Shown: piece by piece, positions 19-19,703 of the stretch
Position numbering within the stretch: position 1 is the stretch's first letter
Layout: the number at the start of each line of letters is the position of its first letter
NCBI GenBank assembly: GCA_963775685.1
Contig: CAVZJV010000004.1
Span: 1 to 19,793 of the forward strand
DNA length: 19,793 nt
Reading direction: 5' to 3'
Source of the DNA: Candidatus Bathyarchaeota archaeon
GTDB lineage: Archaea > Thermoproteota > Bathyarchaeia > Bathyarchaeales > Bathycorpusculaceae
Program-made: the position numbers and the translations under genes
The notes under the pieces: generated by a model
Told to the model about the DNA's origin: nothing
Database searches by the model: none
The model's input: only the letters and a program-made list of their open reading frames with translations

Positions 19-38
19 GCCCCTGTTTAAATAGGGGC
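19..38. repeat. 20-bp near-perfect palindrome GCCCCTGTTTAAATAGGGGC directly after the integrase stop (candidate att or recombinase-binding site, or terminator hairpin)
   Basis: 9 of 10 positions pair around a central TTTAAA, with one G-T mismatch (25/32). It abuts the integrase TAG at 38-40. Confidence 0.55.
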
Positions 39-1264
39 TACTTACGCTTCCTGAACAACTTTGTGTCTCCAAAATCGCAAACATACTCAAAACCTGCTTC
101 AACAAGCTTTTGAGCATCTTGAACTGTTTTAGCGGTGGCTGAATGGAAATCGTCGTTCTCAAAGCTTATGAGCTGAGTGTATAGCAGCGTATTTTGGATG
201 TTTTTGTGGCCGAGTATTTTCATGACATGTAAGATGTCCTTGGTTTTGGCGTATTCCATGGTTGCTTTCCAGTGTCTAAGCGTGTGGAAGTGGATTTTGC
301 GTATGCGGTCATTTTTGAGTTTGGTGGCGATTTTGTTTCTTTGTATTCTGAAGGTTCTAGTGAAGTGTCGGGGAGAGCAGGCGAAAGGTTTGGTTTTTTC
401 TTGGGGTAGGCTGTTTAGCATTGCGAGTAGGCGTACCGAGATTTTTAGTTGGCGTGGTTCGCTTCCTTTTTCTGGTGTTATGTTAACGGTTCTGTTTTCT
501 AGGTCAAAGTCGATCCATTGAAGCATGAAGGCTTCTCCGCAGCGCATGCCTGTCTCTTTGAGTAGTTGGAGGAAGGTTGCGGTTTTTTTGTTGCATCCGG
601 CGATTAAGTTGTTTACTTCATCTTCGGTTGGAATGAAGGGCAATTTTCTGGCTGATTGGTATTTTGGGGGGTTCCAGGTTTTTCCTTGCATTTTTAGGAA
701 GCACGAGTAGGTTTCTACTGCGATTTTTTTGGTCTTCGCGGTCCATGTTTGTTGTTTAGCGATTGCTTCTTTGACTGATTCTGGGTCTTGGAGGTTGGCG
801 CCTTTGTTTACTATTGTTCTTAAGAGGCGTATTCTTCGGGTGATAGTTGATTCGGCGTATCCTTCTTTTTGCATCCAAAAGGCGTGTTCGACGATTTTGC
901 CTTTTACTTCTGCTTCATTTCTACGCAGAACTACGGTTTTTTGAGGTTCTGCTTCCAAATTTTTCGTCTCCTTGACGCATATTTGGCTGGTATTAACTAT
1001 GTTGGCTTGGCTTTTTAATGACTTCGATTCAACTGTTTCAACAACTTTGAAGTTTTCAAATTCTTTTTTGGCGCTCTCTAAGTCAGTGGGATCTGAGAAT
1101 CTTCGTCCGCAGTCTCTGCAGTACCATCGTTGAATTTCATAGCCGAAGCTGTTTTGTCGTTTAGCATCTTTCCAGACTCTTTCGGATTTGCATTGAGGGC
1201 ATCGCGGATTTATACTCGTTGAGCTAATGCAAGGAGAGCAAGAAAGCAGTATTTGATTTTCCAA
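38..1264 (-). CDS. Tyrosine recombinase/integrase (XerC-like) with N-terminal Zn ribbon
   Basis: Catalytic set intact: GMRCGE (R), PEKGS (K), HTLRH (HxxR), LGH, LLYTQ (Y). N-terminal CPQC...WYCRDCGRRF. Start moved from 1309 to TTG at 1264, which follows GGAGG and lies 1 nt past the upstream stop. Confidence 0.92.
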   Translation of the reverse strand: MENQILLSCSPCISSTSINPRCPQCKSERVWKDAKRQNSFGYEIQRWYCRDCGRRFSDPTDLESAKKEFENFKVVETVESKSLKSQANIVNTSQICVKETKNLEAEPQKTVVLRRNEAEVKGKIVEHAFWMQKEGYAESTITRRIRLLRTIVNKGANLQDPESVKEAIAKQQTWTAKTKKIAVETYSCFLKMQGKTWNPPKYQSARKLPFIPTEDEVNNLIAGCNKKTATFLQLLKETGMRCGEAFMLQWIDFDLENRTVNITPEKGSEPRQLKISVRLLAMLNSLPQEKTKPFACSPRHFTRTFRIQRNKIATKLKNDRIRKIHFHTLRHWKATMEYAKTKDILHVMKILGHKNIQNTLLYTQLISFENDDFHSATAKTVQDAQKLVEAGFEYVCDFGDTKLFRKRK

Positions 1265-1265
1265 A

Positions 1266-2933
1266 CTAAGAAGCCTCCATTTCTTGGCTTTGGAGGTGCT
1301 CCAAGACACGGCTTCCGCAGTTAAAGCAGATTTTGGCGGTTGAGTGGTCGTAGAACTCTACGTTATATAGAATATCGAGGGGCTGTTGGTTACACATGGG
1401 GCAGAGTTGGTCAACGGCACGTTGGTCTAAGTCGAGGACATGGCAAACGACGACTTGGTCGAGGGAAAGCAACTTAGGAATTTGTAGTCGATTATTTTGT
1501 TTGTACGATTCCGACGATTGCGACGTTTCCGACGAATCCGACGATTGTAGCAAAGAAGTAGCTTTAGGTTTTAATTGGTAGTTTTCAGGGTCAAATCCGA
1601 AGCGTTCACATAGTAGTCGCAGTTTTTTTGTGTCCCAAGTGAAACCACGTTTTTTGCCAACTCTGCACCGTTCAAATCCTAAAGCCGCTATTTTTGAGGT
1701 TAACGTTTTCCCAAATAACTGTTCTTTTTGTGTGCGCTCAAAATTGAAGGCGTTTTCTATATATTCGTTAGCAACTGCACCGTTTTCTACATGGTCACTA
1801 GCTGTGATTATAGCAAGCAGTATTTCCGATTCAATGCTTGTGTTTTCTTCTGTTTTCTGTTGACTTGAAACTGCCTTCGCATAATCTACGATGATTTTCT
1901 TTTCGGCTTCATCTGCTACTGCACAGAGGGGCATGAAGATTTCTACGACTCGTGCATTTTTTATGGCTCTGAGTTCTTCTGGAATGTCAAGGGTGGCTTT
2001 GGTTTTTGCGTCGTATTCGTCGTAATCGTCGAATTCGTCGTATTCGTCGTCGAAGGTAGCGTTAACGGTTTGTTGGTTTTGAATAGTATTGCCAAGTAGA
2101 GTTTCAAAACGCCACTGTAGAAGTCTATTTCGTATTGTCTGTGCTGCTTTATCGTTCAGTACTATGTCGAGTTGTCGAGTGTTCTTTGCCATGGTTATGA
2201 TTATGCTTCGACTTTCGAGTGTGGCTTTGAGTGCTTCTGTGCCTGCTATGCCTTTGAATCCGAAAACGTGGAAGGATTTTATCTCTTGGTTGTCGCCTTG
2301 ACATCTTTCTATGATTGCGCTTCTGCGTTTGTATCCTGCGTTTAGGCATGCGATTACATCGACTTTTTCGTCTTGGTTGTAGACTTCGGCTTCGTCGAGG
2401 AATGGTACACAGTTGAATTTTTCGATGCTTCTAAAGAGTGCTGGTGCTGTGGCAGAGACGCTTATTTTTCCTCTACATGTGAGAACTTGGAGTGTTTCGA
2501 GACCTCTGGTTTTTCCTGAATTTTTGACGCCGACAAAGAAAACGTATGGTGCTGTTCCCCATTTTTCACTTATCCATGTTGCGAATACCCACGCGGTTAG
2601 AACTTCGTATAAGCGCTCATCTGGGAGCTCTACACTTCGCCAAATGAATCTTTTGATGAATCGCCAGAGTTTCTTTTTGTTTACAGGTTGTATTTGGGTT
2701 GGTGTGCATAAGTTCCAGTTTATTTCATCTTGTGATATGGGGGTGTATGCTGTGTTTGTTCCTTTTGGGATTATTTTTGCTGTTTGGCCGTTGTTGAGTA
2801 GGAATTGTTCGCCTTCGACTTGTTCAAAGATCACGCCTTTTTCGGGTAGCCATAAGCCTGGGGTTTGTACGTATATGGTGGTGTCTTCTTTGGCTTTTGT
2901 TTCTGCTCGTTTAAGATCAGCGATTATAGCCAT
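1266..2933 (-). CDS. P-loop AAA+ replicative helicase-like protein (DUF3631/MCM-SF3-like) with C-terminal Zn finger
   Basis: Walker A GVKNSGKT, Walker B FLDEAE, candidate Arg finger LESRSI, C-terminal CPMC...CFNC. GGAGG precedes the ATG, and the gene overlaps the primase stop. Confidence 0.75.
   Translation of the reverse strand: MAIIADLKRAETKAKEDTTIYVQTPGLWLPEKGVIFEQVEGEQFLLNNGQTAKIIPKGTNTAYTPISQDEINWNLCTPTQIQPVNKKKLWRFIKRFIWRSVELPDERLYEVLTAWVFATWISEKWGTAPYVFFVGVKNSGKTRGLETLQVLTCRGKISVSATAPALFRSIEKFNCVPFLDEAEVYNQDEKVDVIACLNAGYKRRSAIIERCQGDNQEIKSFHVFGFKGIAGTEALKATLESRSIIITMAKNTRQLDIVLNDKAAQTIRNRLLQWRFETLLGNTIQNQQTVNATFDDEYDEFDDYDEYDAKTKATLDIPEELRAIKNARVVEIFMPLCAVADEAEKKIIVDYAKAVSSQQKTEENTSIESEILLAIITASDHVENGAVANEYIENAFNFERTQKEQLFGKTLTSKIAALGFERCRVGKKRGFTWDTKKLRLLCERFGFDPENYQLKPKATSLLQSSDSSETSQSSESYKQNNRLQIPKLLSLDQVVVCHVLDLDQRAVDQLCPMCNQQPLDILYNVEFYDHSTAKICFNCGSRVLEHLQSQEMEAS
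1503..1547 (+). repeat. Tandem 9-bp repeat array A (CGACGAWTS-like, 5 units)
   Basis: Units gtacgattc cgacgattg cgacgtttc cgacgaatc cgacgattg; encodes QSSDSSETSQSSESY in the helicase. Confidence 0.85.
2009..2052 (-). repeat. Tandem 9-bp repeat array B (CGACGAWTW-like on minus strand, 5 cores), inverted relative to array A
   Basis: CGTCG cores at 2009, 2018, 2027, 2036 and 2045; encodes FDDEYDEFDDYDEYDA. Confidence 0.85.
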
Positions 2934-3982
2934 GGGGGAACCTCCACTTGCTTTGTTGTGCCTGTATGTTGGTTGATGGCTTTGATGACATCGTAGATGC
3001 CGCTGATGCCTTTGAGGTTGCCGATGTTTTTGCGGTGGCTGTATTGGTAATCAACTTTAGCTAAGAATTCTTGGCGGTCAAAGTCGCTTGTGGCTGTGCG
3101 GGTGCATAGTTCTGCAATGACGTTGCGGGTTGCTTCAATGGTTATACCTTTTTTGATGCACAAACCACAGAAGCTTATGACGAGTTCGTTGCGGTAGCCG
3201 TTTATCCAGTATTGCATTAGGAACTGGATGGTTTGCTCTTCATCTTTAGCGGTCAATGGCTTGGTGGTTGGGGGGTTTGGAGCAAATGACATCTGTACGT
3301 TTGTTTTAGTTTGCATCTCCATTATGGCGGTGTCGGCTTCGCTGAAACTTAAGCCATGTTTGTTTTCAAGTTCTTTAATGGGTAAGGGTTCGAATGTGTC
3401 GAGGTCGAGCATTCGGCTCCATTTGCGTTCCACTTGATGCTTTCCAAAGGGTAGCTTGACAAAGTTGCCGTAGGGTGTTTGCGGGGTTAGCGCATCCTGC
3501 TTGGGGAAGACTTCGATTTGTTTTGGGCTAAGGTTTGCCATTTCTAATATGCGAGTTCCCAGCCAGCGTGCTGCTTTTGCTTGCATCGGAATGAGGAATA
3601 ATAGCCAAATGTGGTATGATGGGTCAGGGTATCGTGAGGCTTCAAGGATTATGCAGTTAGGCCATGCGCTGGGTCTTTCGTTGCCTTCTTTGTCCGCGGT
3701 CTTGTGCAGAAGGATGCTTAGGATTGTTTTGGCTGCGGCTTTTGGGTCAATGTTTTTTTCTGGGTCTATGTCGAAGCAGAGGTATTTGACCAAGTTATTA
3801 AGGTCCAGTTGGTAGCTGCCCACTGTGATTTTGCCGTCTAAGTGTTGCTGTAATGTTTGGTCGGTTAAGGGTTGGGGTATTTTGCTGTAGCCTTGCTTTA
3901 GTTGGATACAGTAACAGTCGGAGCGGTTAACAAACAAGTCTTTGAGTATAGATAAGATGTCAGCAGTCATTGAGTAAACCAT
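2924..3982 (-). CDS. Archaeo-eukaryotic primase (AEP, TOTE-associated primase-like) with PriCT-like helical C-terminus
   Basis: Motifs HLDGKITVGSY, CFDID (DxD), SYHIW, IEVFPKQ, GNFVKLP. C-terminal GYRNELVISFCG resembles PriCT-1. The true start may be ATG 3970. Confidence 0.85.
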   Translation of the reverse strand: MVYSMTADILSILKDLFVNRSDCYCIQLKQGYSKIPQPLTDQTLQQHLDGKITVGSYQLDLNNLVKYLCFDIDPEKNIDPKAAAKTILSILLHKTADKEGNERPSAWPNCIILEASRYPDPSYHIWLLFLIPMQAKAARWLGTRILEMANLSPKQIEVFPKQDALTPQTPYGNFVKLPFGKHQVERKWSRMLDLDTFEPLPIKELENKHGLSFSEADTAIMEMQTKTNVQMSFAPNPPTTKPLTAKDEEQTIQFLMQYWINGYRNELVISFCGLCIKKGITIEATRNVIAELCTRTATSDFDRQEFLAKVDYQYSHRKNIGNLKGISGIYDVIKAINQHTGTTKQVEVPPWL

Positions 3983-6504: not shown

Positions 6505-9500
6505 GTGTTTCAGAAGTATATTAAAAAAATCTCCGATACGGCAAAACAAGGAGATGCCCGTGAAGAGAGTTACTATTCTACACTTGAAACATTAATAATC
6601 GATTTTGCAGAATCCATTGGCAAAAAGGATATTCGTGTCACTTCTCAACCCAAGAAAACAACCGCTGGAAATCCCGATTTCCGAGTATGGTCTGGGAAAC
6701 TGGACATAGTCGGATATATTGAGGCAAAAGTTCCTGAACAAGACTTATCTCCGATTGAGACAAGTGAGCAGGTAAAAAGGTACAATAAGACTTTCCCAAA
6801 CGTCATACTTACAAATTTTATAGAATTTCGATTCTATAGAAAGGGAGTCTGCATTGACACAGTAACAGTTTGCGACCTTTCAAGTCTTATTCAATCAAAG
6901 AAAAAGCCATTTTTTAGAAATGAAACCGAGTTTACAAGTCTTTTGTCCAAGTTCCTCTCTTTTTGTTTCCCAAGCATAACCTCTGGCAAAGACCTAGCAA
7001 TTGAACTAGCAAAGAGAACCCGCTATTTGCGGGATGAAGTCGTTGCTGAGGAACTAAGAGAAGGAAAAAGTGAGAATGCGGGAAAAATTCTTGGATTTTA
7101 TGAAGCATTCGAACGATTCCTAATCAAAGGATTGACAAAAGCACAATTTGCAGATTTGTATTCTCAAACGATAACTTACGGCCTATTTGCAGCAAGAATG
7201 CGCTCTGAAGGCGAGTTTAATCGGAAACTTGCAGTACATGATATTCCTCGGTCATTGGGTATTTTGAGGGAAATGTTTGATTTCATTTCACTTGGAGACT
7301 TACCTGTTCAAATGGAATGGGCTGTTGACGATATTTCATATGTTTTGGCTAAGGTACATGTGAAAAAACTGTTCTCAGATTTCTATCGAAAAAGAAAAGG
7401 AGAAGACCCTATCTTTCACTTTTATGAAACCTTCTTGGAAGAATACGACCCAGAAGAGCGCGAGCATAGAGGGGTCTATTATACTCCTACACCTGTTGTC
7501 AGTTACATTGTTCGTTCGCTCAACTTGATTTTGAAAGATAAGTTCGAATTGAAGGATGGATTGGCGGATGAAAGAGTAACGATATTAGACCCTGCGGCTG
7601 GCACACTTACCTTTATTGCAGAAGCTGTGAAGCAGGCAGTAGAAGAATTTGTATCTAGATATGGTGAAGGCGAACGAGAAGGGTTCATTAAAGAACATAT
7701 CATGAGGGACTTCTACGCTTTTGAACTAATGATTGCTCCCTACGCACTTGGGCATGTTAAAATATCATTTTTGTTGGAAGAACTAGGGCATAAATTAGAA
7801 CAAGATGAACGTATGAAGTTTTTCTTAACAAATACTTTAGATTTAGAAGATATTGAACAGACCTCCCTGCCTGGAATGGCTTCTTTGGCTGAAGAAAGCA
7901 AAAAAGCAGGTAAGGTGAAAAACGAAGTCCCAATTTGGATTATCCTAGGCAATCCTCCTTATTTTGGGATGTCATCGAACAAAGGAGAGTGGATCACAAA
8001 CCTAGTACATGAGTACAAATTTGTTGACGGAGAACCACTTGGTGAAAAAAACCCCAAATGGTTACTTGATGATTATGTCAAGTTTATCAGATTCGCTGAA
8101 TGGAAAATTAACCAAATGGGAAGGGGCGTCATAGGATTCATAACTAATCACAGTTACTTAGATAATCCAACTTTTAGGGGAATGCGTCAGCATCTAATGG
8201 AGAATTTTGACGAAATTATGGTTCTTAATCTTCATGGCAACACGCTAAAAGCGCCTACATCTCCAGATGGAAGCAAAGATGAAAATGTTTTTGGAGGCAT
8301 AATGCAAGGTGTGGCTATCTCTTTTTTTGTGAAGACTGGAAATAAAAAATCAGCATCAAGGGTATTTCATCATGAAAAATGGGGTACACGTGAGCAAAAA
8401 TATGAATGGCTCTTTTCAAATGACATGAGTACAACTCGTTGGACTGAGTTAACTCCTCATACGCCGTTTTACTTTTTTGTGCCGAAAAAAGAAAAGTATG
8501 AAAAACGCTATAATAAATTTTGGAAAGTTACAGACATTTTTAAGATCAACAGTGTTGGAATTGTCACTGCAAGAGACGGCTTAACTATTGCTTATACTGC
8601 AGATGAAGCATAGAAAACAGTGCAAGATTTCTCTTCATTGTCAATCGAAGAAGCAAGGACTAAATATGATTTAGGCGAAGATGCCCGCGATTGGAAAGTT
8701 TCTTATGCTCAAGAGGACTTGAAAAATACTGGACCAAACCAAAAAAGGATAGTTCCTATTCTCTATAGACCGTTTGACGTAAGGCACACGTACTATACAG
8801 GACATTCAAAGGGTTTCCACTGTATGCCACGACCAGAAGTAATGAACAACATGATGAAAGACAACATTGCATTAATTACCTCAAGATTAACAAAAGGAGA
8901 AAGCTTCAAACACGCTTTAGTTTCGAATACGATTTCAGAAGTGATTCTTCTCTCGCCTAAAACATCAAACAATGCTTTCGTTTTTCCGCTTTATACCTAC
9001 AGCGAAATGAAAGGCAAGTGTAAAAACATTAATTCTTATGTAATTAATGCGCTAGAAAAAGTATATGGTCAAAAAGTTTCTTCAAGAAGCATTTTTAACT
9101 ACATATACTCTATCCTTTATTCAAGCAAATATAGAAATAAATACGAAGAATTTTTAGAAAGTGACTTCCCAAGAATACCATTTACCACAAGTCTTCAAAT
9201 ATTCAGTACTTTAGGGGAACTAGGACAAAACCTTGTAGATTTGCATCTTATGAAAGATGAGGCTTTGAGCAAATCGAAAACTAAATTTCAAGGGCATGGT
9301 GAGCACACGGTTAAGAAACCTTTCTACGTCAGCGAGACAGAGAGGATTTACATAAACGAGACTCGATATTTTGAGGGCATCGAAAGAAAGGTGTGGGAAT
9401 ATCAAATCGGTGGATACCAAGTTCTATCTAAATGGCTGAAATATCGAATACGAAGGGTCCTCTCCTTGAGCGATGTTAAACACTTTTGCAGAATTGTTGA

Positions 9501-9624
9501 AGTTATAGGAGAGACTATTGAAATTCAAGACCGTATAGACGAATTGTATGGAGAGGTTGAACAAGACCTTATTCCTCTTGAGAAAACTAGTTCAAATGAA
9601 ATAATTGAAAAATTTATAAAATAG
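6505..9624 (+). CDS. Type IIG / type ISP-like single-chain RM enzyme (PD-(D/E)XK nuclease, N6-adenine MTase, LlaBIII-like specificity region), interrupted by in-frame TAG at 8611-8613
   Basis: Motifs GNPDF...YIEAK, GVYYTP, ILDPAAGT, GNPPY. C-terminal YRPFD, DFPRIPF, WEYQIGGYQVLSKWLK. ORFs 6505-8613 and 8620-9624 share one frame. Confidence 0.88.
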
Positions 9625-11251: not shown

Positions 11252-11730
11252 CACTCATGAAAAAAGAGTTAAATTATGAGAGGCCTGAAGATCTAAGATG
11301 TTTTGGATAAGAGAAATATTGTCCGGGGGAAAGACTATGGAGGTTAGGAGTAAGCACTATGATGTTTTGGGTCAGAGGATAGCGTTGGGGAACTCTGAAA
11401 CGGGTTGGTTGAAGGGTACGCCATCATCCAAGAAATAATTAAGATACCGGTGAAACAGATTCAAAAGTATGAGAGCAAACATCTTGCGACCAAATGGGCT
11501 GTTTAATATTCGGGAGATAAGGGGAGTTAAATCATGTCAAAATGTCTAAAGGGCATCTTTGATGCTGACAATCTTTCCTTTTAGACATCGATTGGTTTTT
11601 TCTCTTGCTAGTGCCAAATGCAAGCGATGAAAAACAAAACTCAATTAAAACTAATATAGATGTTAGAAAACCAGTTATCTGAAATCATAACTAAGGATTC
11701 ATAAAGCATAAGCCTCACAAAACGAATTGT

Positions 11731-11982
11731 ATGAGGACACTAATGACGCTTAGTTCAACCTTTAACCGAAGAATCTTCCTTGTCTTCCACTGTTTAGGCA
11801 TAAGTTGCACAGGCGGGGCAATATTCCTCCAAATCCTAACGTTCGCAAGCATATTCTACCAAGGATATTTTTGGGCAGTGGAGAAAAATCCCGCAATACT
11901 CTCAATAGAAATAGGCCTTACAGCCTTTGCACTGGTCTATTTTATTTATGTATATCAACGAATAATTCATTCTTTGAAATAA
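11731..11982 (+). CDS. Small integral membrane protein (2 predicted TM helices)
   Basis: Two hydrophobic stretches separated by AVEKNP. Confidence 0.6.
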   Translation: MRTLMTLSSTFNRRIFLVFHCLGISCTGGAIFLQILTFASIFYQGYFWAVEKNPAILSIEIGLTAFALVYFIYVYQRIIHSLK

Positions 11983-12089
11983 ACATAGAAACAGTTGCGT
12001 TTTTTCCCGTTATCTGACCCTCAAATAGGGTTATAGAGATGTCGGAGCTTGCAAATTATTTTGTTGTGTTCATCAACAATACTTATTTC

Positions 12090-14689
12090 TTAGAGTCGCC
12101 TTTTTTTCACGATTCTGAATGTAGCTACGCTGACTACTGCAATAGCAAACACTGCTAACGCATAGAGGTAGAGGGGTGTTTCTGTGGGCTGTGATGTAGG
12201 TGAAGGCGATGGTGATTGAATGCGGCTTGGACTTGGGGTTGCAGTAGCAGGGGTTATAGTAGGGCTTAGAGTTGGGGTTGACGAGGTAATTGTTGGTGAA
12301 GCCGTAGGCGTTGAGGTTTGCGGGGTTGTAGTTGTTGGAGTGGGTAAGGGTGTTGAAGAAGGTGAAGCTATTGGGGTCGAAGTAGGAGTAGATGTGGAGG
12401 AAGGTGAAGGTGTTGCCGTTGGATTTGGTGTTGGAGTAGACGTAGGACTCGGAGTGGGTGTGGGTGATGAAGTAGGTGTCGGGGTTGGTGTAGGAGGTGT
12501 TTCTAAAATGATGGTGTCTGAGTAGGTGGAACTGAGCAAACCCGCGTTATCCTTGACTTGATAGTAAACAGTTTTTATTCCGTCACCAGCTATTAAGGTC
12601 CAGGTCTTAAATGCTGAAGGCGTCTCCCATGGTTCAGTGTCCCATATACCGTCGTTACTGTATCGAGCTTGAGACACACCTGACGTCAAATCATTCGCAC
12701 TCAGCGCCAAGGTTACTGACGGAGAAGATGTAAAGGCATCGCCATTGTTCAAAATAATTGAGCCAGTAGGGGCGTTCTTGTCTAGTTTTATTCCTTGTAG
12801 AGTTTTATGCGGAAGCTCCTCGTTTCCGAGGCTGTCTGTACTCCAGTACTCTAACTTGTTTTTGGCGCCTTCAACGTTTATTATAGGTTGATTATTGATG
12901 TTGACACTTCTTATTGAGCCATCGTTGATTCTGTAGTAAGTGTCGAAAACGCCAGTAAAGTCATCTACGGCTGATAGTTTTATTGCGAAGTCTGCTGTGT
13001 GCCATAAACCGTCGTATTCATGAACAGTATGTGGGGGCGAATCTGCAGGAATCTTAACAAGCCAACCATCGCTACCTCCTGCTCCGTACGAGTTTGTAGT
13101 TCCTGCCATCGCGTAGCCCCCATCAGAAGCCTGGATAACAGATTCTGCTTGCTCGCTTTTTGTTCCTCCGTAGGTTCTACTCCATTGGGTATTACCAACT
13201 GAGTCAGTTTTGACAAGCCAAGCATCGCTTTCTCCAGCTCCATATGACCATGTAGTTCCTGCCATCGCGTAGCCCCCATCAGAAGCCTGGATAACAGAGT
13301 TCCAATCGTCGATGTCTGTTCCTCCGTAGGTTCTACTCCATTGGGTATTACCAACTGAGTCAGTTTTGACAAGCCAAGCATCGGTATCGCTCACTCCATA
13401 TGATGTGTCTGTGGTGCCCGCTAACGCGTATCCTCCGTCAGGAGTCTGGATAACAGACCTTGCAAGCTCATTTTTTGTTCCGCCTGTTGCTCCATCTCCG
13501 TAGGTTTTGCTCCACTGGGCATAGCCGGTTGAGTTAGTCTTGACAAGCAAAGCATCTCCTTTTCCAGATCCCGCTATTGCGTAGCCTCCATCAGAAGTCT
13601 GGATAACAGAGAAACCACGGTTGTAATATTCAATACCGTAGGTTCTGTTCCACTGGCTATTGCCCACTGAGTCAGTCTTGACAAGCCATGTTTTTCCGCC
13701 TCCTACTGCATATGTGATACCTGTTATTGCGTAGCCTCCATCAGAAGTCTGAATGATGCAACCTGGCTCTGCATACTCATTACCAGGTCCGCCGTAGGCT
13801 CTGCGCCACTGTTCGTTACCAGCAGAGTCTGTTTTAACGAGCAAGAAGTTCGAGTTGGGATATACACGTGGAGGAGACGACTGATTAGTACCCGCTAAAG
13901 CGTAGCCGCCGTCAGAAGTCTGGATGCCATACTGTATTGTTCCGTAGGTTTTGTTCCACTGGCTATCGCCCACTGAGTCAGTCTTGACAAGCCAACCTTC
14001 TGCACCAACTATTGAGTATCCTCCATCAGGCGTCTGAATTACAGAATATGCATATTCGTTGCTTGCTCCTCCGTATGTTTTACTCCATCCAAGCGATTGC
14101 ACAATCAATTGTCGTGCCTGCATCGTGTCCTGCCATACTGAAAACCCACCGCCCCACTAGGATGAGAATAATCCAGTGCCTCCAAAACCTTAACCCCGTC
14201 CACAAACAACTGCAATGAACCACAAACCGCAACCGCAGAAACCGTATACCACCTGCCCGCTTCTACCTCGCTGTAAAGCCCTGAAAAAGCCAACTCTTGA
14301 TAGACACCATCCACAACTCTTGAAAGACTATACTTGTGACCAAAACTTCCCAGCCCCAAAAGGTAAAAGTTGAAAGGATCAGTGTACCTCACGACAAGAC
14401 CCGCTTCGCCTCCAGGGTTAACTGCACGAAGATTCGCGGTTGCTTTATAATACATCCAAGAGAGATCTCCTGTCCAAACTAATGCTTCTCCATTAGCTGC
14501 TGTACCCTGAAGCAGACTTCCTGAAGTAGTCCAAACACCATTAATTACGTTCATGTTATCCAGATTGGCAAAATTATCGCTGAACAAAACCAAAGCACTG
14601 GCTTCTGGCAGTTTCACTTCAAAAACCAAAACACAAGATAACAGCAACAAGAAAGCTAATGCTACTCCAAACCTAAACGGTCTCCTCAA
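12090..14689 (-). CDS. Cell-surface protein: signal peptide, ConA/DUF1080-like beta-sandwich, 7-blade beta-propeller, Ig-like domains, Pro/Thr/Ser linker, C-terminal TM anchor; one frameshift near 14140
   Basis: ORF 14105-14689 joins 12090-14123 by a single base ([15 protein letters not shown]). Seven WxxTYG...IQTxDGGY...LVKT repeats, PT-rich tract, hydrophobic tail followed by KKRRL. Confidence 0.8.
12180..12500 (-). repeat. Low-complexity Pro/Thr/Ser coding tract
   Basis: [17 protein letters not shown]... linker, probably a glycosylated stalk. Confidence 0.8.
13095..13383. repeat. 156-bp-period intragenic duplication (propeller blades 6 and 7) with identical 48-bp and 67-bp blocks
   Basis: 13095-13142 = 13251-13298 and 13161-13227 = 13317-13383; the intervening 18 bp are highly divergent. 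Confidence 0.9.
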
Positions 14690-14822
14690 AACTTCTCCAC
14701 TCCATTAATTTTAAGGTTGAATCAGCATTTAAGTTTTATTCCGGCATCTTTTGAGGTTGACTCTGTAGGAATTAACAATGAGGTTAGTGGTTAGTAGAAG
14801 TCAACCCTGAACTCTACTCTTT

Positions 14823-14951
14823 TCAGTTAGGGCTTTGCATTTCCTTCAATGAGGGAATATACTGCAAGGAAACTGTTATTCGCCCTCGACTAAGTCTGCT
14901 TCTAATTTCGTTATTTATTCTTGTGTTGCCTCTTCCTTTGCTGGATGACCA
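14823..14951 (-). pseudogene. Orphan 3' tip (copy 3) of an ABC-GNAT homologue
   Basis: Reads SKGRGNTRINNEIRSRLSRGRITVSLQYIPSLKEMQSPN*, matching the gene end at 16975-17075. Positions 14914-14942 match 17036-17064 at 28 of 29 bases. Confidence 0.85.
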
Positions 14952-15195
14952 GAAAGAGATAATGAGTAAATTGTTCTAAAAATGGGATTTATGCCTCGCG
15001 TGTTTGAACTTAAGTTTAGATGTGGACGCCTTTAGGAGTCCTTATTCTATTTCTGGGAGGTAAGGTTTGGTTTTTTGTCTTTAAGTGGTCGGTTGCTTGT
15101 TGTAGTGACGAGGCTACAGCACGACTTTATATCTTTAATCGTCACTCTTAATATTGATTATATTCAGTTTTGAACTATCTAAAGAGGTGAAATAT

Positions 15196-15543
15196 TTGAA
15201 CAAAAAAATCTTCCATGGAGCCATTCTCGAAAGCATCCTGCTCAACCTAATAAGCGAAACATCCGAACGTGGCCTATACGGCTACGCCATCTTGAAGGCA
15301 GTGGATAAAAAATTTAAAATATACTTGAGCGCATCAACTATATACCCGAACTTAGGCGTTTGGAGAAACATGGGCTCATAGGTTCAAGCTGGGAGTTCGT
15401 TTGGGAAAAGCTCGCAAGCAATATCGAATTACGAGGAAAGGGAAAGGAGTCTGCTGATGGCGTATTTTGTAGAGTTGAAAGCTGTTATTCCAGTTTTCGT
15501 TACATGCAAAACAGAAGACGGTTTAGTTGCAGTGAATGAATAG
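15196..15543 (+). pseudogene. PadR-family wHTH regulator, three apparent frameshifts (near 15346, 15402, 15445)
   Basis: TTG after GAGGTGA. Reconstructed GLYGYAILKAVDKKFKIYLSASTIYPELRRLEKHGLIGSSWE..GKARKQYRITRKG. Confidence 0.75.
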
Positions 15544-15571
15544 GATTGTTTAATTTGTGAATTTCGAAGAT

Positions 15572-15626
15572 TTGCAGAAACATATTGCATGGAAACAGTT
15601 ATGCGTTTTCGGCTAAGGCTACCCCT
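15572..15626 (-). pseudogene. Orphan 3' tip (copy 2) of an ABC-GNAT homologue
   Basis: SLSRKRITVSMQYVSA versus SLSRKRITVSMQYVPA at 16973-17020; most differences are synonymous. Confidence 0.8.
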
Positions 15627-15678
15627 AAAGTAATGTAAAATAAAATTTTGAGTTAAAGTCATACTTCGAATGGTCTAT

Positions 15679-16826
15679 CTATTGCCCCACTCTGATACTT
15701 GATCCGCCGTACCTAAACGAAGGCCCAACTTGCCCTTGAGGGTTCAATTCACTGTAGACTGGGTCAACTCTGAATCCGCCTATGTCTCCTGAAGTGTTCC
15801 AACGGTATGTTTGGTTGAAAGGCTGGATAATCGCAGCGTTTGAACCAGGAGAAACTCTGAATAGGAGAATGTCTTGAGCTGCTGTGCTTGCTGGCCCATA
15901 AGTTATTTGTGAAATGTCATAACCTAAGAGAACATATTTTAACCGATCAAATTGCGGTGCCCCCCATGTGAGGGTGGCTTTTCCCTTTTCCCAGACACCG
16001 TTTAGAAAAGGCAGAGTGCCAAGTCCTGGCGGAACAACCGATATGCCTTCTCCAGTGATTGGAACACCTTGATCCGAAGTTGTGGGTTGCGGATTTAGGC
16101 TTCCCTGAATGCCAGTGGGCGTTTGTGTTTCTAACGAGGGAGACTGTTCATATTGGTAATTTCTAGGTGGCTTTCTCTCCACTGTATGGTCTCTCTATTC
16201 TTCTTATCCATTACATTTTGCATTCGCTGTTGCCTTTTTGCCTTACTAAACTTGATAACGGCTACTATAACCGCCATTAGGGCTATGCCAACGGCGCCAG
16301 CTATGATGAAAGGTACAAAGGCAACTATTGAATCACCATTAAAAAGACCCAAACCACCACCGCCTCCGCTTCCACCAGATGTTCTTGTAGCGGTCCAACT
16401 CATGCTAAAACTTCTTGCACCCAATGGGTCAACCATCGTTCCTGTGATTGTTCCGCTTGCTGACGTCGCTGATGGGAATTTTGCATTTAATGTTCCTTCG
16501 CCATAACCATTAATTTGCCCATTTCCAGAGTCGTAAGAAGCAGTTAAAGTCAGACTCATTATAGTATCAGACATAAAACCTTCAACAGAGATTGGGTAGG
16601 ATCCCGATGGCGTGCTGCCTGTGAAGCCTGAGGATGTGAAGTCACCGTTTGACTGCACATTTATCGTTCCAGAGTAAGATCCGCCTTCCACAGTTGCAAC
16701 CATTTCCCAAGTTTGAAATGCCGATTGCGCTTTAATCGTAGAAATGAATACTCCAAAAATAGCAAAACTTGATAGCAGGATAATTAACGCCAAAATCGCA
16801 ATTTTTGGATTCCTGTTAGCTTTCAA
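15679..16826 (-). CDS. Single-pass membrane protein: signal peptide, Ser/Gly/Thr-rich extracellular beta domain, TM helix, Pro-rich linker, small beta-rich C-terminal domain; probably one gene frameshifted near 16190 (alternatively two genes)
   Basis: ORFs 16131-16826 and 15679-16182 overlap by 52 nt, and the junction lies in an AG-rich microrepeat. Confidence 0.55.
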
Positions 16827-16947
16827 ACAAATACGCCCGCAACACCCTATTAAATATTAAATAATATATGATTTGTTTCTTCTCAATCAAGATTAGCAAT
16901 AAACGAAGAGCCGAGCGCTCTTATCTTCAGAATTTTTCAGTCATTGA

Positions 16948-18033
16948 TTACAGATTTAATGCGTTTGGACTCGCAGGGACATACTGCATGGAAACGGTTA
17001 TTCGTTTTCGGCTAAGACTTCTTCGTATTTCATTGTTTATTCTTGTGTTTCCTCTTCCTTTGCTTGCGTGTCCAAAGCGGGCTATTTTCCAGTTTTTCAT
17101 GTTTCCTCTGTATGATCTGAGGATTGCTTGTTAGGATGTAGAAGGGCATTTTTGTTTGGGAAGAGTAAAGTTCAGCGATAAAGTTTAGGAATCGTTTGCC
17201 AACGCCGATTCCTTGATAGTCTGGCAGCACAACTAATCGGCTTACTCGATAATATTTTGCTTTCATTCTTACGCATGCGACAGCTATGAAGGCAATGGGT
17301 TTGTCTTGATAGACTGCAGTGTAGCATCTGACTCCTGCACCTAAGGAGCCGTTTAGATAGTGATATTGCCGAAACATCTGCCAAAGGAAGCGCCGCACCG
17401 ATGGACTTGGAGTTCAACGGGCGGCCTGACTTCTTTTTTTCGGCTAAACTCCATAGTGTCAGTGCAGAAAACCCAATCGGGATCAAGCCAATCAACAACA
17501 TCATAATGGCAGGTTACAGCTATGAATTTCTTTTTGAGCTCTTCGAACTGCTTTGCTTATTGCAAAGGCGCTAACTTTGGCAATTTCCCTATCCACAACG
17601 ATTGTAAACTCATCGAAAACCACTAATGGCTTATCTAAGCAAAGTGCGCGTGCGATGTCAACACGCATCTTTTCTCCTTGGCTTAGGCAATCATAACTTT
17701 TGAGCCAGTCAGGAGGAGAAGCAAAACCTACACTGCAAAGCATCTTTGTAATTTCTCCTGTTTCAAGCTCTTCGGGAAAATCATCAAGACGCATTTGCTT
17801 GGATACTCAAACCCTCGGATGTAGGCTTCAGGGAAAAGCTGTTTAGCAATGCTTGTTTTGCCTGAACCACTGCGCCCCACAATAACGCCAACTTGCCAAT
17901 CATAATCTTCAATGGGCAAGGAGCCTTTGAAATGCTTCTCCAACTTGACTTCAGATAGGGTATAGCTGCCAACTACGCTTTGAGACCTGAAACTATCTGC
18001 TTCATCCCAGCTTTTTACAATGTCAAAATCCGT
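16948..18033 (-). CDS. ABC-type ATPase fused to a GNAT acetyltransferase, four apparent frameshifts (near 17787, 17533, 17388, 17110)
   Basis: GRSGSGKT (Walker A), LSQGEKMR (ABC signature), VVFDEFT (Walker B), AVTCHYDVVDWLDPDW (H-loop), FRQYHYL, RLVVLPDYQGIGVG (acetyl-CoA motif A). Confidence 0.82.
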
Positions 18034-18601
18034 AGCTTATACCCCTCCGCTTTTAGCTTCTCAAAATATGCTTTTTGATTCGCTTCATCTTTGCATTCAA
18101 TGATTATCTCGTAGGTTTCAGGAACCGAAAGAGAGACCTCACGTTCGCCTAACCTCCTCGGGGAGTCTTCTCGCCGACTGATTCAAGAAGCACCTTTAAA
18201 TCGTCTTTTTCACCCAGCTCAAGTATGCGCAGGTACTCAGCGTTATCAAGCTCCTTGTTGTGTTTCCCCTTTAGCTTGTTGAGCACTTGCCTAAGCATCC
18301 TTCTATCAACATCAGAGACGGACAATCGTAAAACGGGCGCATAGAATTCGCCATGTTGCTTGCAAACTTCAGCTCTTTGCTCGCCATCAGCATAGACGCC
18401 ATCCCTATTGGTTATTATCGGATATGCCCAACCGTATTTTTTCAGACTTCGCCAAATTTGCTCTTGCTGCTTAAGGGTGGTGCGGTTAGGGTTGTGCTGG
18501 TCTGCTGTTAAAAGGCGAATATCTTCCAGTAGTGGGATATAGGCTTCTGGAACTCTGAGGGTAGTTTTGTTTTCCAAAGAACAGGTCTCCTTCATCAACA
18601 T
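18015..18601 (-). CDS. ParB/Srx N-terminal-like protein, frameshifted near 18155-18168
   Basis: NPNR...SLKKYGWAYPIITNRDGVYADGEQR...LNKLKG. Continues in another frame as PETYEIIIECKDEANQKAYFEKLKAEGYKLRILTL*, overlapping the ABC gene start. Likely start TTG 18577. Confidence 0.75.
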
Positions 18602-18620
18602 ATTAGGTTAAAAAACAGGT

Positions 18621-19050
18621 TTACAGAAGCTTTTTTGCTTCCATTAATGATTTAAGCTCGGCAATCTCAGTTGCTGCCCTGGCTGATTTTGTATTATGAT
18701 CCTGCTTTTCTTTAAGCGTCTCTAACCCCAGCAAAGCCAAGAGTCCGATCGGTTATGTCCACCATTTTTGATAGGTACGCTGGTTTCTGGGCGTTCGCCT
18801 GCTGTTTGGAAGTGAAGGCTTGCCATCCGATAGAGATAGTCATACCGATTAACAAGTATAAGCCGTGCTTTGTCTAGTTCGAAGAGTTGGGTTAGGACGG
18901 GTTGCCAGGTGTCGCGGGTTTCTGCGTCATAGTAGATGTTTCTCTCTGAGGTTTGGTATTTTTCGCTTAGCACCTTCACTATTTCGCAGAGGGTAAAGCC
19001 TTTTGCTTCGAGCTTTAGGAATTCTAAGCGTCTTTCAAGATTTCGTTCAT
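18621..19050 (-). CDS. HTH protein (terminase small subunit-like architecture), several apparent frameshifts
   Basis: ATG 19050 follows GGAGG and overlaps the upstream TGA. ERRLEFLKLEAKGFTLCEIVKVLSEKYQTSERNIYYD fits an HTH. A helical tail ends ELKSLMEAKKLL* at 18621. Confidence 0.5.
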
Positions 19051-19703
19051 GCGAAAGCCTCCAAAATTGAAATGTGGATTTCATTTTCGCTATAATCGGT
19101 TGTTCGCTTTATCATGTCGCCTTCAAGCTTGATATCTTGGCGCTTCTTCTCTGACAGGAAGTAATAGGGCTCTTCAAAGGTTGGCACGTGGTATTTTCTG
19201 CAGATTTTAAAGTAAGCATCCACTACCTCGAATATGTCGCTGTCAGGTAAGCATTGTCTAAAGCCATCTCTGTTGGGTGAATTGTTCCAGTTATAAGTTA
19301 AATGCCAGTAGAAACGCAAACAAATCTTTTCGTATTCTGAAGCTTGAGCCTGCAAAACATCTATCTTACCATAAATAATTTTCATTTTAAGAAGTGTTTG
19401 TAAGAAGATTTTACTTTTTGGGTCTTCTTTGGCTTTAACTACATTAATTTGATTGGGCTCCTGTGGTTCTTCATCCCAAACTTGGCAAAGCATTTTTGAT
19501 TCTTGTTGTGACTGCGGGTATTTTTCGATTAGATACTTGCGCAGTTCAACAAAAGTTACCATGACTTCAAACTCTGAACCGGACATTAGGGACAAATCTG
19601 TACTACCGTCTTTATCTATAACTTCTGGGAATAACTGTTTAAGCGTACAGTTTTTTGGGTCTATGTCTTCTTGTTTTAGCTTCTCTATAACGTGAGGAGA
19701 CAT
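19047..19703 (-). CDS. Hypothetical protein (218 aa)
   Basis: Long ORF coupled by an ATGA overlap to the downstream HTH gene; no motif recognised. Confidence 0.65.
   Translation of the reverse strand: MSPHVIEKLKQEDIDPKNCTLKQLFPEVIDKDGSTDLSLMSGSEFEVMVTFVELRKYLIEKYPQSQQESKMLCQVWDEEPQEPNQINVVKAKEDPKSKIFLQTLLKMKIIYGKIDVLQAQASEYEKICLRFYWHLTYNWNNSPNRDGFRQCLPDSDIFEVVDAYFKICRKYHVPTFEEPYYFLSEKKRQDIKLEGDMIKRTTDYSENEIHISILEAFA

Follow-up and report, generated by a model that had tools for sequence, protein, structure and literature searches.

Why should the end of one gene recur, cut short and detached from the rest of the gene, in front of a series of unrelated neighbours? The question is raised by a stretch of 19,793 nucleotides (nt) from a Candidatus Bathyarchaeota archaeon (contig CAVZJV010000004.1 of assembly GCA_963775685.1; the whole stretch is called the window below). 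It appears to be an integrative element in which a gene pair for an ABC ATPase and a GNAT protein, the head gene, is followed in coding order by two orphan copies of the GNAT 3' end. We call these copies, and the end still attached to the gene, tips; each precedes cargo of its own. We believe that the tips are probably scars of a serial insertion of tip-plus-cargo units anchored by homology, in the manner of the C-terminal displacement described for Rhs genes. The same explanation takes the element family of these Bathyarchaeia to be virus-derived and tRNA-integrating, which seems to us reasonably likely.

The tips in the window and their origin

All three tips lie on the minus strand. Tip 1 (16976-17110) comprises the conserved last ~45 GNAT codons and is still attached to its gene; it was used as the search query and is delimited by alignments. 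Tip 2 (15569-15628) is an orphan of about 57 nt, and tip 3 (14852-14961) an orphan of about 110 nt with one frameshifting indel. A repeat search of the window unites the copies in one family (D5: 16968-17019, 15569-15620 and 14846-14897) and pairs 16976-17064 with 14854-14942 at 83% identity (D6). With 17110-16930 as the query against the whole 3.06-Mb genome, nhmmer finds copy 3 (14961-14852) at E 1.4e-13 and copy 2 (15625-15569) at E 8.2e-6. In the MAFFT alignment copies 2 and 3 are both 5'-truncated, and the similarity ends at one 3' limit, just after ...CAGTATGT; the longest exact match among the tips of the window is about 11 nt.

An earlier first-pass annotation, made from the letters alone, had listed three copies in this order and orientation; the repeat search, nhmmer and the alignment agree with it. 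It had also described each extra copy as 5'-truncated with different cargo behind it, which is what the alignment and the open reading frames (ORFs) show. The places it gave are right, while the ends shift to 14961-14852 for copy 3 and 15628-15569 for copy 2: its limit at 14823 is the stop codon of a non-homologous tail, beyond the homology of copy 3.

The differences between the tips fall mostly at third codon positions, as had been noted there. By codon position they number 4/3/13, 2/0/7 and 4/1/8 in the three tip pairs of the window, a third-position excess (13/20, 7/9 and 8/13 differences) with binomial p of 0.004, 0.008 and 0.035; pooled over the collected tips, the counts are 549/410/1062, that is, 1062/2021 at the third position. 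Such an excess implies that the differences arose while the sequence was still coding. Tips of one array differ by a median p-distance of 0.295 (minimum 0.16); random locus pairs differ by 0.397. Judged by these distances and codon positions, the tips are remnants of diverged, laterally acquired alleles and not recent local copies, and the proposal that they come from distinct homologous genes stands.

Once displaced, tips no longer code and decay. Frameshifting indels are present in 25/67 orphan tips versus 4/88 tips in full modules, and stops in 16/67 versus 0/88.

Arrays in the genus and independent insertions

The pattern is genus-wide in these Bathyarchaeia and not a local oddity. Tip DNA has matches in 31 of the 61 genomes drawn from the genus, and 12 of these genomes have at least two matches within 12 kb on one strand. 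The genome of the window (G000) itself has same-strand tip clusters at five loci and single tips elsewhere. The tip profile was run over this genome and over all fetched loci, which were gathered via tip or GNAT matches. Tip pairs less than 12 kb apart are always on the same strand (75/75, none opposite), and a full ParB-ABC-GNAT module, where an array has one, comes first in coding order (13/13 arrays). A complete GNAT is present at 80 loci: 70 of them carry a single tip, and the other 10 have extra tips, all of them downstream and on the same strand; one of the 10, L152, has a tip upstream of the matched GNAT copy, the array itself being headed by a full module. The annotation had expected tip number and cargo to vary between relatives, and they do: homologous elements carry from 1 to 5 tips, each preceding different cargo. 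Arrays occur in 10/25 loci of types C, D and E, which have a cargo bay after GNAT, and in 0/21 virus-type loci (terminase genes after GNAT) and 0/15 type-B loci.

How many insertions does the pattern record? Four genomes, that of the window among them, share the distal PadR cassette and have a full head module. The PadR-linked tip measures 57 nt in the window, where the proximal cassette encodes a membrane protein; 174 nt in G071, with Endo_dU in the proximal cassette; 436 nt, the whole GNAT, in G080, with a nucleotidyltransferase-like protein; and 52 nt in G081, with DUF5752 and one additional tip in between. Different proximal cargo and different break points mean at least four separate insertion events. 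The identities of the PadR module and of the head module are discordant (91% vs 79% in G071, 85% vs 85% in G080). In all four genomes the PadR cassette that they share is the distal one, and the cassettes specific to one genome are proximal, which fits a newest cassette next to the gene; as read from this sequence pattern, the cassettes would then be ordered in time.

Some further observations belong here. A two-tip array is found twice in G000 with its flanks (C14:665904-666633 and C14:276974-276241, the flanks being shared in the alignment), so arrays themselves get copied. Paralogues of transcription factor B (TFB) lie just past tip arrays in the same genome (C14:277698-278678 and C5:121763-122755), and a broken TFB is the cargo behind a single tip in G044 (L074 8600-9576).

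How the arrays may have arisen

We presume homologous recombination as the joining step, and a circular intermediate. The ParB / ABC-ATPase / GNAT module would end at the GNAT 3' end, the last sequence common to the element family, and past it a variable cargo bay would extend as far as the primase/integrase end. Via the common sequence, the resident GNAT would recombine with a unit that joins foreign cargo to a GNAT 3' fragment. Such a unit, the first one included, would most simply be a circle, which could have looped out of another array between two of its tips or have come from an illegitimate event. One crossover would then give, in this order, the head gene, the new cargo, a 5'-truncated tip and the old cargo; repeated crossovers would stack cassettes, the newest adjoining the gene, and the displaced tips would be non-coding and would decay.

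The shape of the fragments was assessed with a 1717-nt profile of the module, on which GNAT starts at ~1300. Of 76 partial matches, 63 are truncated at the 5' side and extend to the 3' end; they start anywhere from 603 to 1636, 45/63 of them in the last ~260 nt. Scattered 5' ends fit variable homology arms, and the common 3' limit results from the end of coding constraint at that point. In 28 array interiors (109 kb) tblastn gave no match to the integrase, ParB, ABC, the small-terminase-like ORF (described below) or other backbone markers; the only matches are to PadR, in 8 arrays, and to one 26-aa piece of primase. The absence of backbone genes from the interiors implies that the inserted units are tip plus cargo and not whole elements. 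The first-pass annotation had proposed that related elements repeatedly recombine into the gene; recurrent independent insertions at its 3' end are borne out, and the insertion of whole elements is not.

Several points weigh against the serial insertion of such units. Tips within an array are at least 16% diverged, a level at which they would today recombine only inefficiently by homology; perhaps the events are old, or closer alleles, since lost, took part in them. No circle, intermediate or tip-to-tip deletion was seen in public sequencing runs that held at most 11% of the sampled words: read contigs from four of them (X1, X2, X3 and X10) are 116-277 nt long, show no joints, and none bridges a tip, and X2 and X3 contributed only pieces of cassette 1 (16193-16619), at 99-100% identity. 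Some arrays have no head gene at all. Three duplicate loci were removed from the pair and array statistics and from the array-interior search only, and duplicate loci are possible in the counts of 5' ends, codon positions and decay. Finally, tip decay does not clearly rise with rank from the head gene (n is small), so that the evidence for the order in time is solely the shared-distal, unique-proximal pattern in four genomes. The time-ordered stack of the annotation is thus upheld by the position of shared and unique cassettes, and not by a trend in decay.

Could the tips be left by whole elements? These would integrate in tandem at a tRNA attachment (att) site, and deletions running from the integrase through most of the next GNAT would leave a tip and its cargo. 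tRNA genes are indeed where the elements integrate (an att repeat of 29 bp in G128, and a tRNA-Pro by the integrase in two relatives), integrases of the family are many per genome, and the survival of short tips only could be due to selection against long direct repeats. We consider this origin unlikely nonetheless. Common as the integrases are, none adjoins a tip, and the 28 interiors hold no integrase, att-side or backbone remnant between tips; 9/63 truncated pieces start before ~1300, reaching ABC, and none reaches ParB; and many independent deletions would all need to end in the last few hundred GNAT bases. It is also tempting to propose a site-specific capture, in which a conserved core of about 40-70 nt in the tip would be an att-like target of a recombinase, as in ssrA and tRNA islands, in the accretion of integrative and conjugative elements (ICE) and cis-mobilizable elements (CIME), or in integrons. 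Each cassette is indeed bounded by same-strand direct repeats, all copies have one 3' limit, and the unit tip-PadR-tip recurs in at least five arrays with different neighbours. The core is, however, not conserved beyond coding needs: in 70 full genes third positions are as conserved in the tip (0.36-0.46) as in the remainder of GNAT (0.33-0.45). The tips form no stable hairpin (fold z -0.04 to 0.51 vs shuffles), the 5' ends are scattered, exact matches between the tips of the window reach only ~11 nt, and the interiors gave no recombinase with the tyrosine integrase of the window as the only query, other recombinase families not being searched. The element's integrase appears to use a tRNA site, and the end of coding constraint accounts for the common 3' limit. 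We regard this capture as improbable, and the ~40-bp recombination target offered by the annotation as an alternative is not supported.

A local duplication of the gene end with divergence in place would readily give close direct repeats, the usual product of slippage or unequal crossing-over. The tips are at least 16% apart, mostly at third positions, a divergence that arose under coding selection which orphans do not feel; moreover, tip 2 with its PadR flank is found elsewhere at 80-91% identity, there directly behind a long GNAT piece. We see very little chance for such a duplication. Even less can be said for an assembly chimera of mis-joined repeats in a metagenome-assembled contig. The window makes up an entire short contig in a bin of 14, the other contigs of the bin end in repeats, and the public runs gave no spanning reads; against this, like arrays are present in many independent genomes, including the one-contig G103 (three tip matches within 2.1 kb on C1), the tip2-PadR-tip3 stretch of the window is collinear with G104 (86% over 770 nt), and the tips are too different to mislead an assembler.

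A bolder variant of the capture by insertion deserves mention, and we would give it a slim chance: the GNAT tip might be the docking site of a dedicated cassette-capture system, an archaeal counterpart of the integron in virus-satellite-like elements. If so, circles of tip plus cargo would be exchanged among the elements of a cell and of the soil community, a recombinase so far unseen, or a recombination function encoded by a virus, would join them, and the arrays would be an active, ordered platform of gene capture, not passive scars.

The serial insertion that we favour has its closest parallel in the Rhs orphan tip arrays, for which the description by Jackson et al. 2009 (PMC2935791) has C-terminal displacement, with homologous recombination and circular intermediates proposed. 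As described there, Rhs (and CdiA) arrays too consist of a full gene followed by same-strand, 5'-truncated 3' fragments with downstream genes of their own, and their tips are laterally acquired alleles that each keep a piece of the conserved region; on that description, the comparison with orphan C-terminal arrays of polymorphic toxins drawn in the annotation is apt. The differences are considerable. The anchor is the GNAT of a virus-type ParB/ABC/GNAT module and not a toxin; the variable tail is about 4-12 codons and not a functional C-terminal domain with a cognate partner; the cargo (a regulator, surface proteins, nucleases, helicases) bears no relation to the gene and is not an immunity partner of it, and the families are mutually unrelated; and the array is found in an archaeon, as part of an apparently tRNA-integrating element.

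Islands that accrete in tandem at a target gene's 3' end are reported for ssrA in Dehalococcoides, for ICE/CIME composites and for the tRNA-linked arrays of tycheposons. Their cargo stacks, like ours, are parted by co-oriented direct copies of one gene's 3' end. Those systems have short, near-identical att cores and an island-carried integrase; here the repeats are 47-436 nt long and at least 16% diverged, their 5' ends are scattered, and there is no integrase between them. Unlike integron cassettes, the tips have no structured attC-like site, as the fold scores given above indicate. Phage satellites and prophages carry variable cargo or defence hotspots in a conserved backbone of integrase, primase and packaging-related genes; the present elements resemble them in having a bay whose accessory genes change, among them a Type ISP-like methylase/specificity pair. 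To our knowledge, no such hotspot has been described in which each capture is marked by an orphan stub of the flanking gene.

Literature searches gave no description of such arrays in archaea. In the main text of a paper on Bathyarchaeia viruses (PMC10848311) GNAT, ParB and ABC are absent; its supplements may hold gene tables. What is new is a stacking akin to C-terminal displacement with a non-toxin anchor, unrelated cargo, an archaeal host and a probably tRNA-integrating, virus-derived element. Displaced-tip stacking, known from bacterial polymorphic-toxin loci, would thus also shape the cargo regions of archaeal mobile elements. Since the arrays mark each capture event, they are a readable, partly ordered record of gene gain; in uncultured soil and peat Bathyarchaeia the recorded gains are regulators, surface proteins, nucleases and restriction-modification genes. 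The arrays also flag a family of tRNA-integrating elements with virus packaging-side genes and without recognised capsid genes, candidate archaeal virus satellites.

The head gene, the cassettes and the element

The head gene (16948-17972, minus strand; ABC ~17972-17353, GNAT 17398-16948) had been annotated as full-length. It is broken in the window: it is spread over at least five frames, differs from four relatives by at least four single-base indels, and is a pseudogene here, where sequencing or assembly errors could also account for the indels. Its fragments match PF00005 (1.7e-5) and PF13508/PF00583, with phrog_11143 on both halves; the Walker A motif GRSGSGKT and LSQGEK can be read in the ABC part. 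The copy in G080 is intact (227 + 159 aa), as are the paralogues at C14:6261-7345 and 600611-601695 in G000. In these intact G000 copies ABC (227 aa) and GNAT (144 aa) are in two frames with a 34-nt overlap (window 17353-17454). The GNAT frame is open for only 163-180 aa in all relatives, and phrog_11143 (357 aa) spans both halves. GNAT codons 1-10 show unusually high conservation at their third positions (0.68), which dual coding would predict; the layout may reflect overlapping genes or a programmed frameshift.

In related proviruses the ParB-ABC-GNAT module stands beside terminase genes, and TerL, assigned by Pfam, is next in 21/80 loci; ABC ATPase motifs and a GNAT fold are found together in a virus packaging neighbourhood, the features by which the phage ABC-GNAT pair is recognised. 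A phage GNAT coupled to an ABC ATPase has been described as a predicted DNA-base acylation system (PMC7824862). So far as that description goes, the present pair resembles it in its ABC-ATPase and GNAT domains, in phrog_11143 and in the place between small-terminase-like and TerL genes in related proviruses; it differs in that ABC and GNAT are in two overlapping frames, and its membership in the Mom-related GNAT clade and any activity on DNA are putative.

Some other copies may be rearranged. At C14:1496163-1497654 of G000 an ABC copy breaks off near residue 197, directly beside a 292-aa ORF with more ORFs behind it, at a guess virus structural genes. The other strand carries, 300 kb away, a GNAT piece (residues 61-144, 93% identity; C14:1803991-1804242); the split is possibly an inversion between two proviruses. 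In G001 a tandem pair of GNAT copies is enclosed in one 261-aa open frame (C5:158152-158862).

The cargo had been named as a membrane protein after tip 1, a PadR regulator after tip 2 and a surface protein after tip 3; the ORFs, hydropathy and PF03551 in a relative agree. Cassette 1 has two genes on the minus strand, neither with a Pfam or PHROG match: gene a (16131-16826), defined by its ORF and hydropathy, for a 231-aa protein with N-terminal and C-terminal hydrophobic segments and with a single DNA match (68%) among 120 genomes of the genus, and gene b, a 167-aa ORF from the ORF list (15679-16182). Cassette 2 is a PadR-family regulator gene (15154-15539, plus strand), convergent with the tips and frameshifted in the window, where it is read in three frames; an intact 113-aa relative in G104 matches PF03551 at 3.4e-15. 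The PadR module and tip 2 (window 15091-15626) are contiguous in many genomes, at 80-91% identity. Cassette 3 (12090-14689, minus strand) encodes two proteins, one of 194 aa that begins with a hydrophobic segment at its N-terminus and a repeat-rich one of 677 aa with internal 156-nt repeats, a Pro/Thr linker and a C-terminal anchor. The 194-aa ORF overlaps the start of the 677-aa ORF at 14105-14123, and the latter has no signal-like start; the two may be one gene split by a frameshift. The surface-protein segment (window 11683-14769) is 80-84% identical to C14:967320-970509 of G000, which has no adjoining tip. Cassette 3 is missing at the equivalent place in G059, where the tip runs straight into a homologue of window 11238-11003.

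The window corresponds to the entire contig G000:C4, one of the 14 that make up the 3.06-Mb genome. Its far end carries, on the minus strand, a tyrosine integrase (38-1309; PF00589 at 4.3e-20), an AEP primase (2924-3982; PF22548 at 5.6e-23) and a 555-aa ORF within the same 38-3982. Upstream of the head gene lies a conserved module (18149-19703, minus strand) of a 218-aa ORF, a 120-aa ORF and a ParB-like protein assigned by ParB PHROGs. The 120-aa ORF (18722-19084) is 46% identical to an ORF directly upstream of TerL in G003; we call it small-terminase-like, by its position in relatives only. The tips lie mid-element, at the start of the cargo bay, between the GNAT gene and the primase/integrase end.

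The ends of the element were placed by means of relatives, the att sites of the window falling outside the contig. A homologous element in G128 (77-80% identity at both ends) has its integrase abutting tRNA-Ala, and the 3' end of the tRNA is repeated perfectly over 29 bp at a point 190 nt past the first ORF of the element; its one tip is internal, not at the element boundary. In two relatives of the left end of the window, tRNA-Pro(GGG) begins just where the contig ends, which is 37 nt past the integrase stop; the other end is 90 nt upstream of the first ORF. From this evidence in relatives, the window looks like essentially one tRNA-integrating element, apparently cut at both att sites. The candidate role of the tips as the element's own att site is ruled out by G128, which is bounded by the tRNA-Ala repeat. 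Scans of the window for tRNA and Rfam families gave no match, and no TerL or capsid gene was recognised in its element. The layout of a small-terminase-like ORF, ParB-ABC-GNAT, primase and integrase is reminiscent, by analogy, of phage satellites; related proviruses that carry TerL are candidate helpers.

The cargo bay holds further genes, among them one for a metallo-beta-lactamase-fold protein. A defence-type pair occupies 6505-9624: first an N6-methylase/Eco57I-type protein of 702 aa and next, as a separate ORF of 334 aa, a Type ISP C-terminal specificity protein that matches PF18135 at 6e-75.

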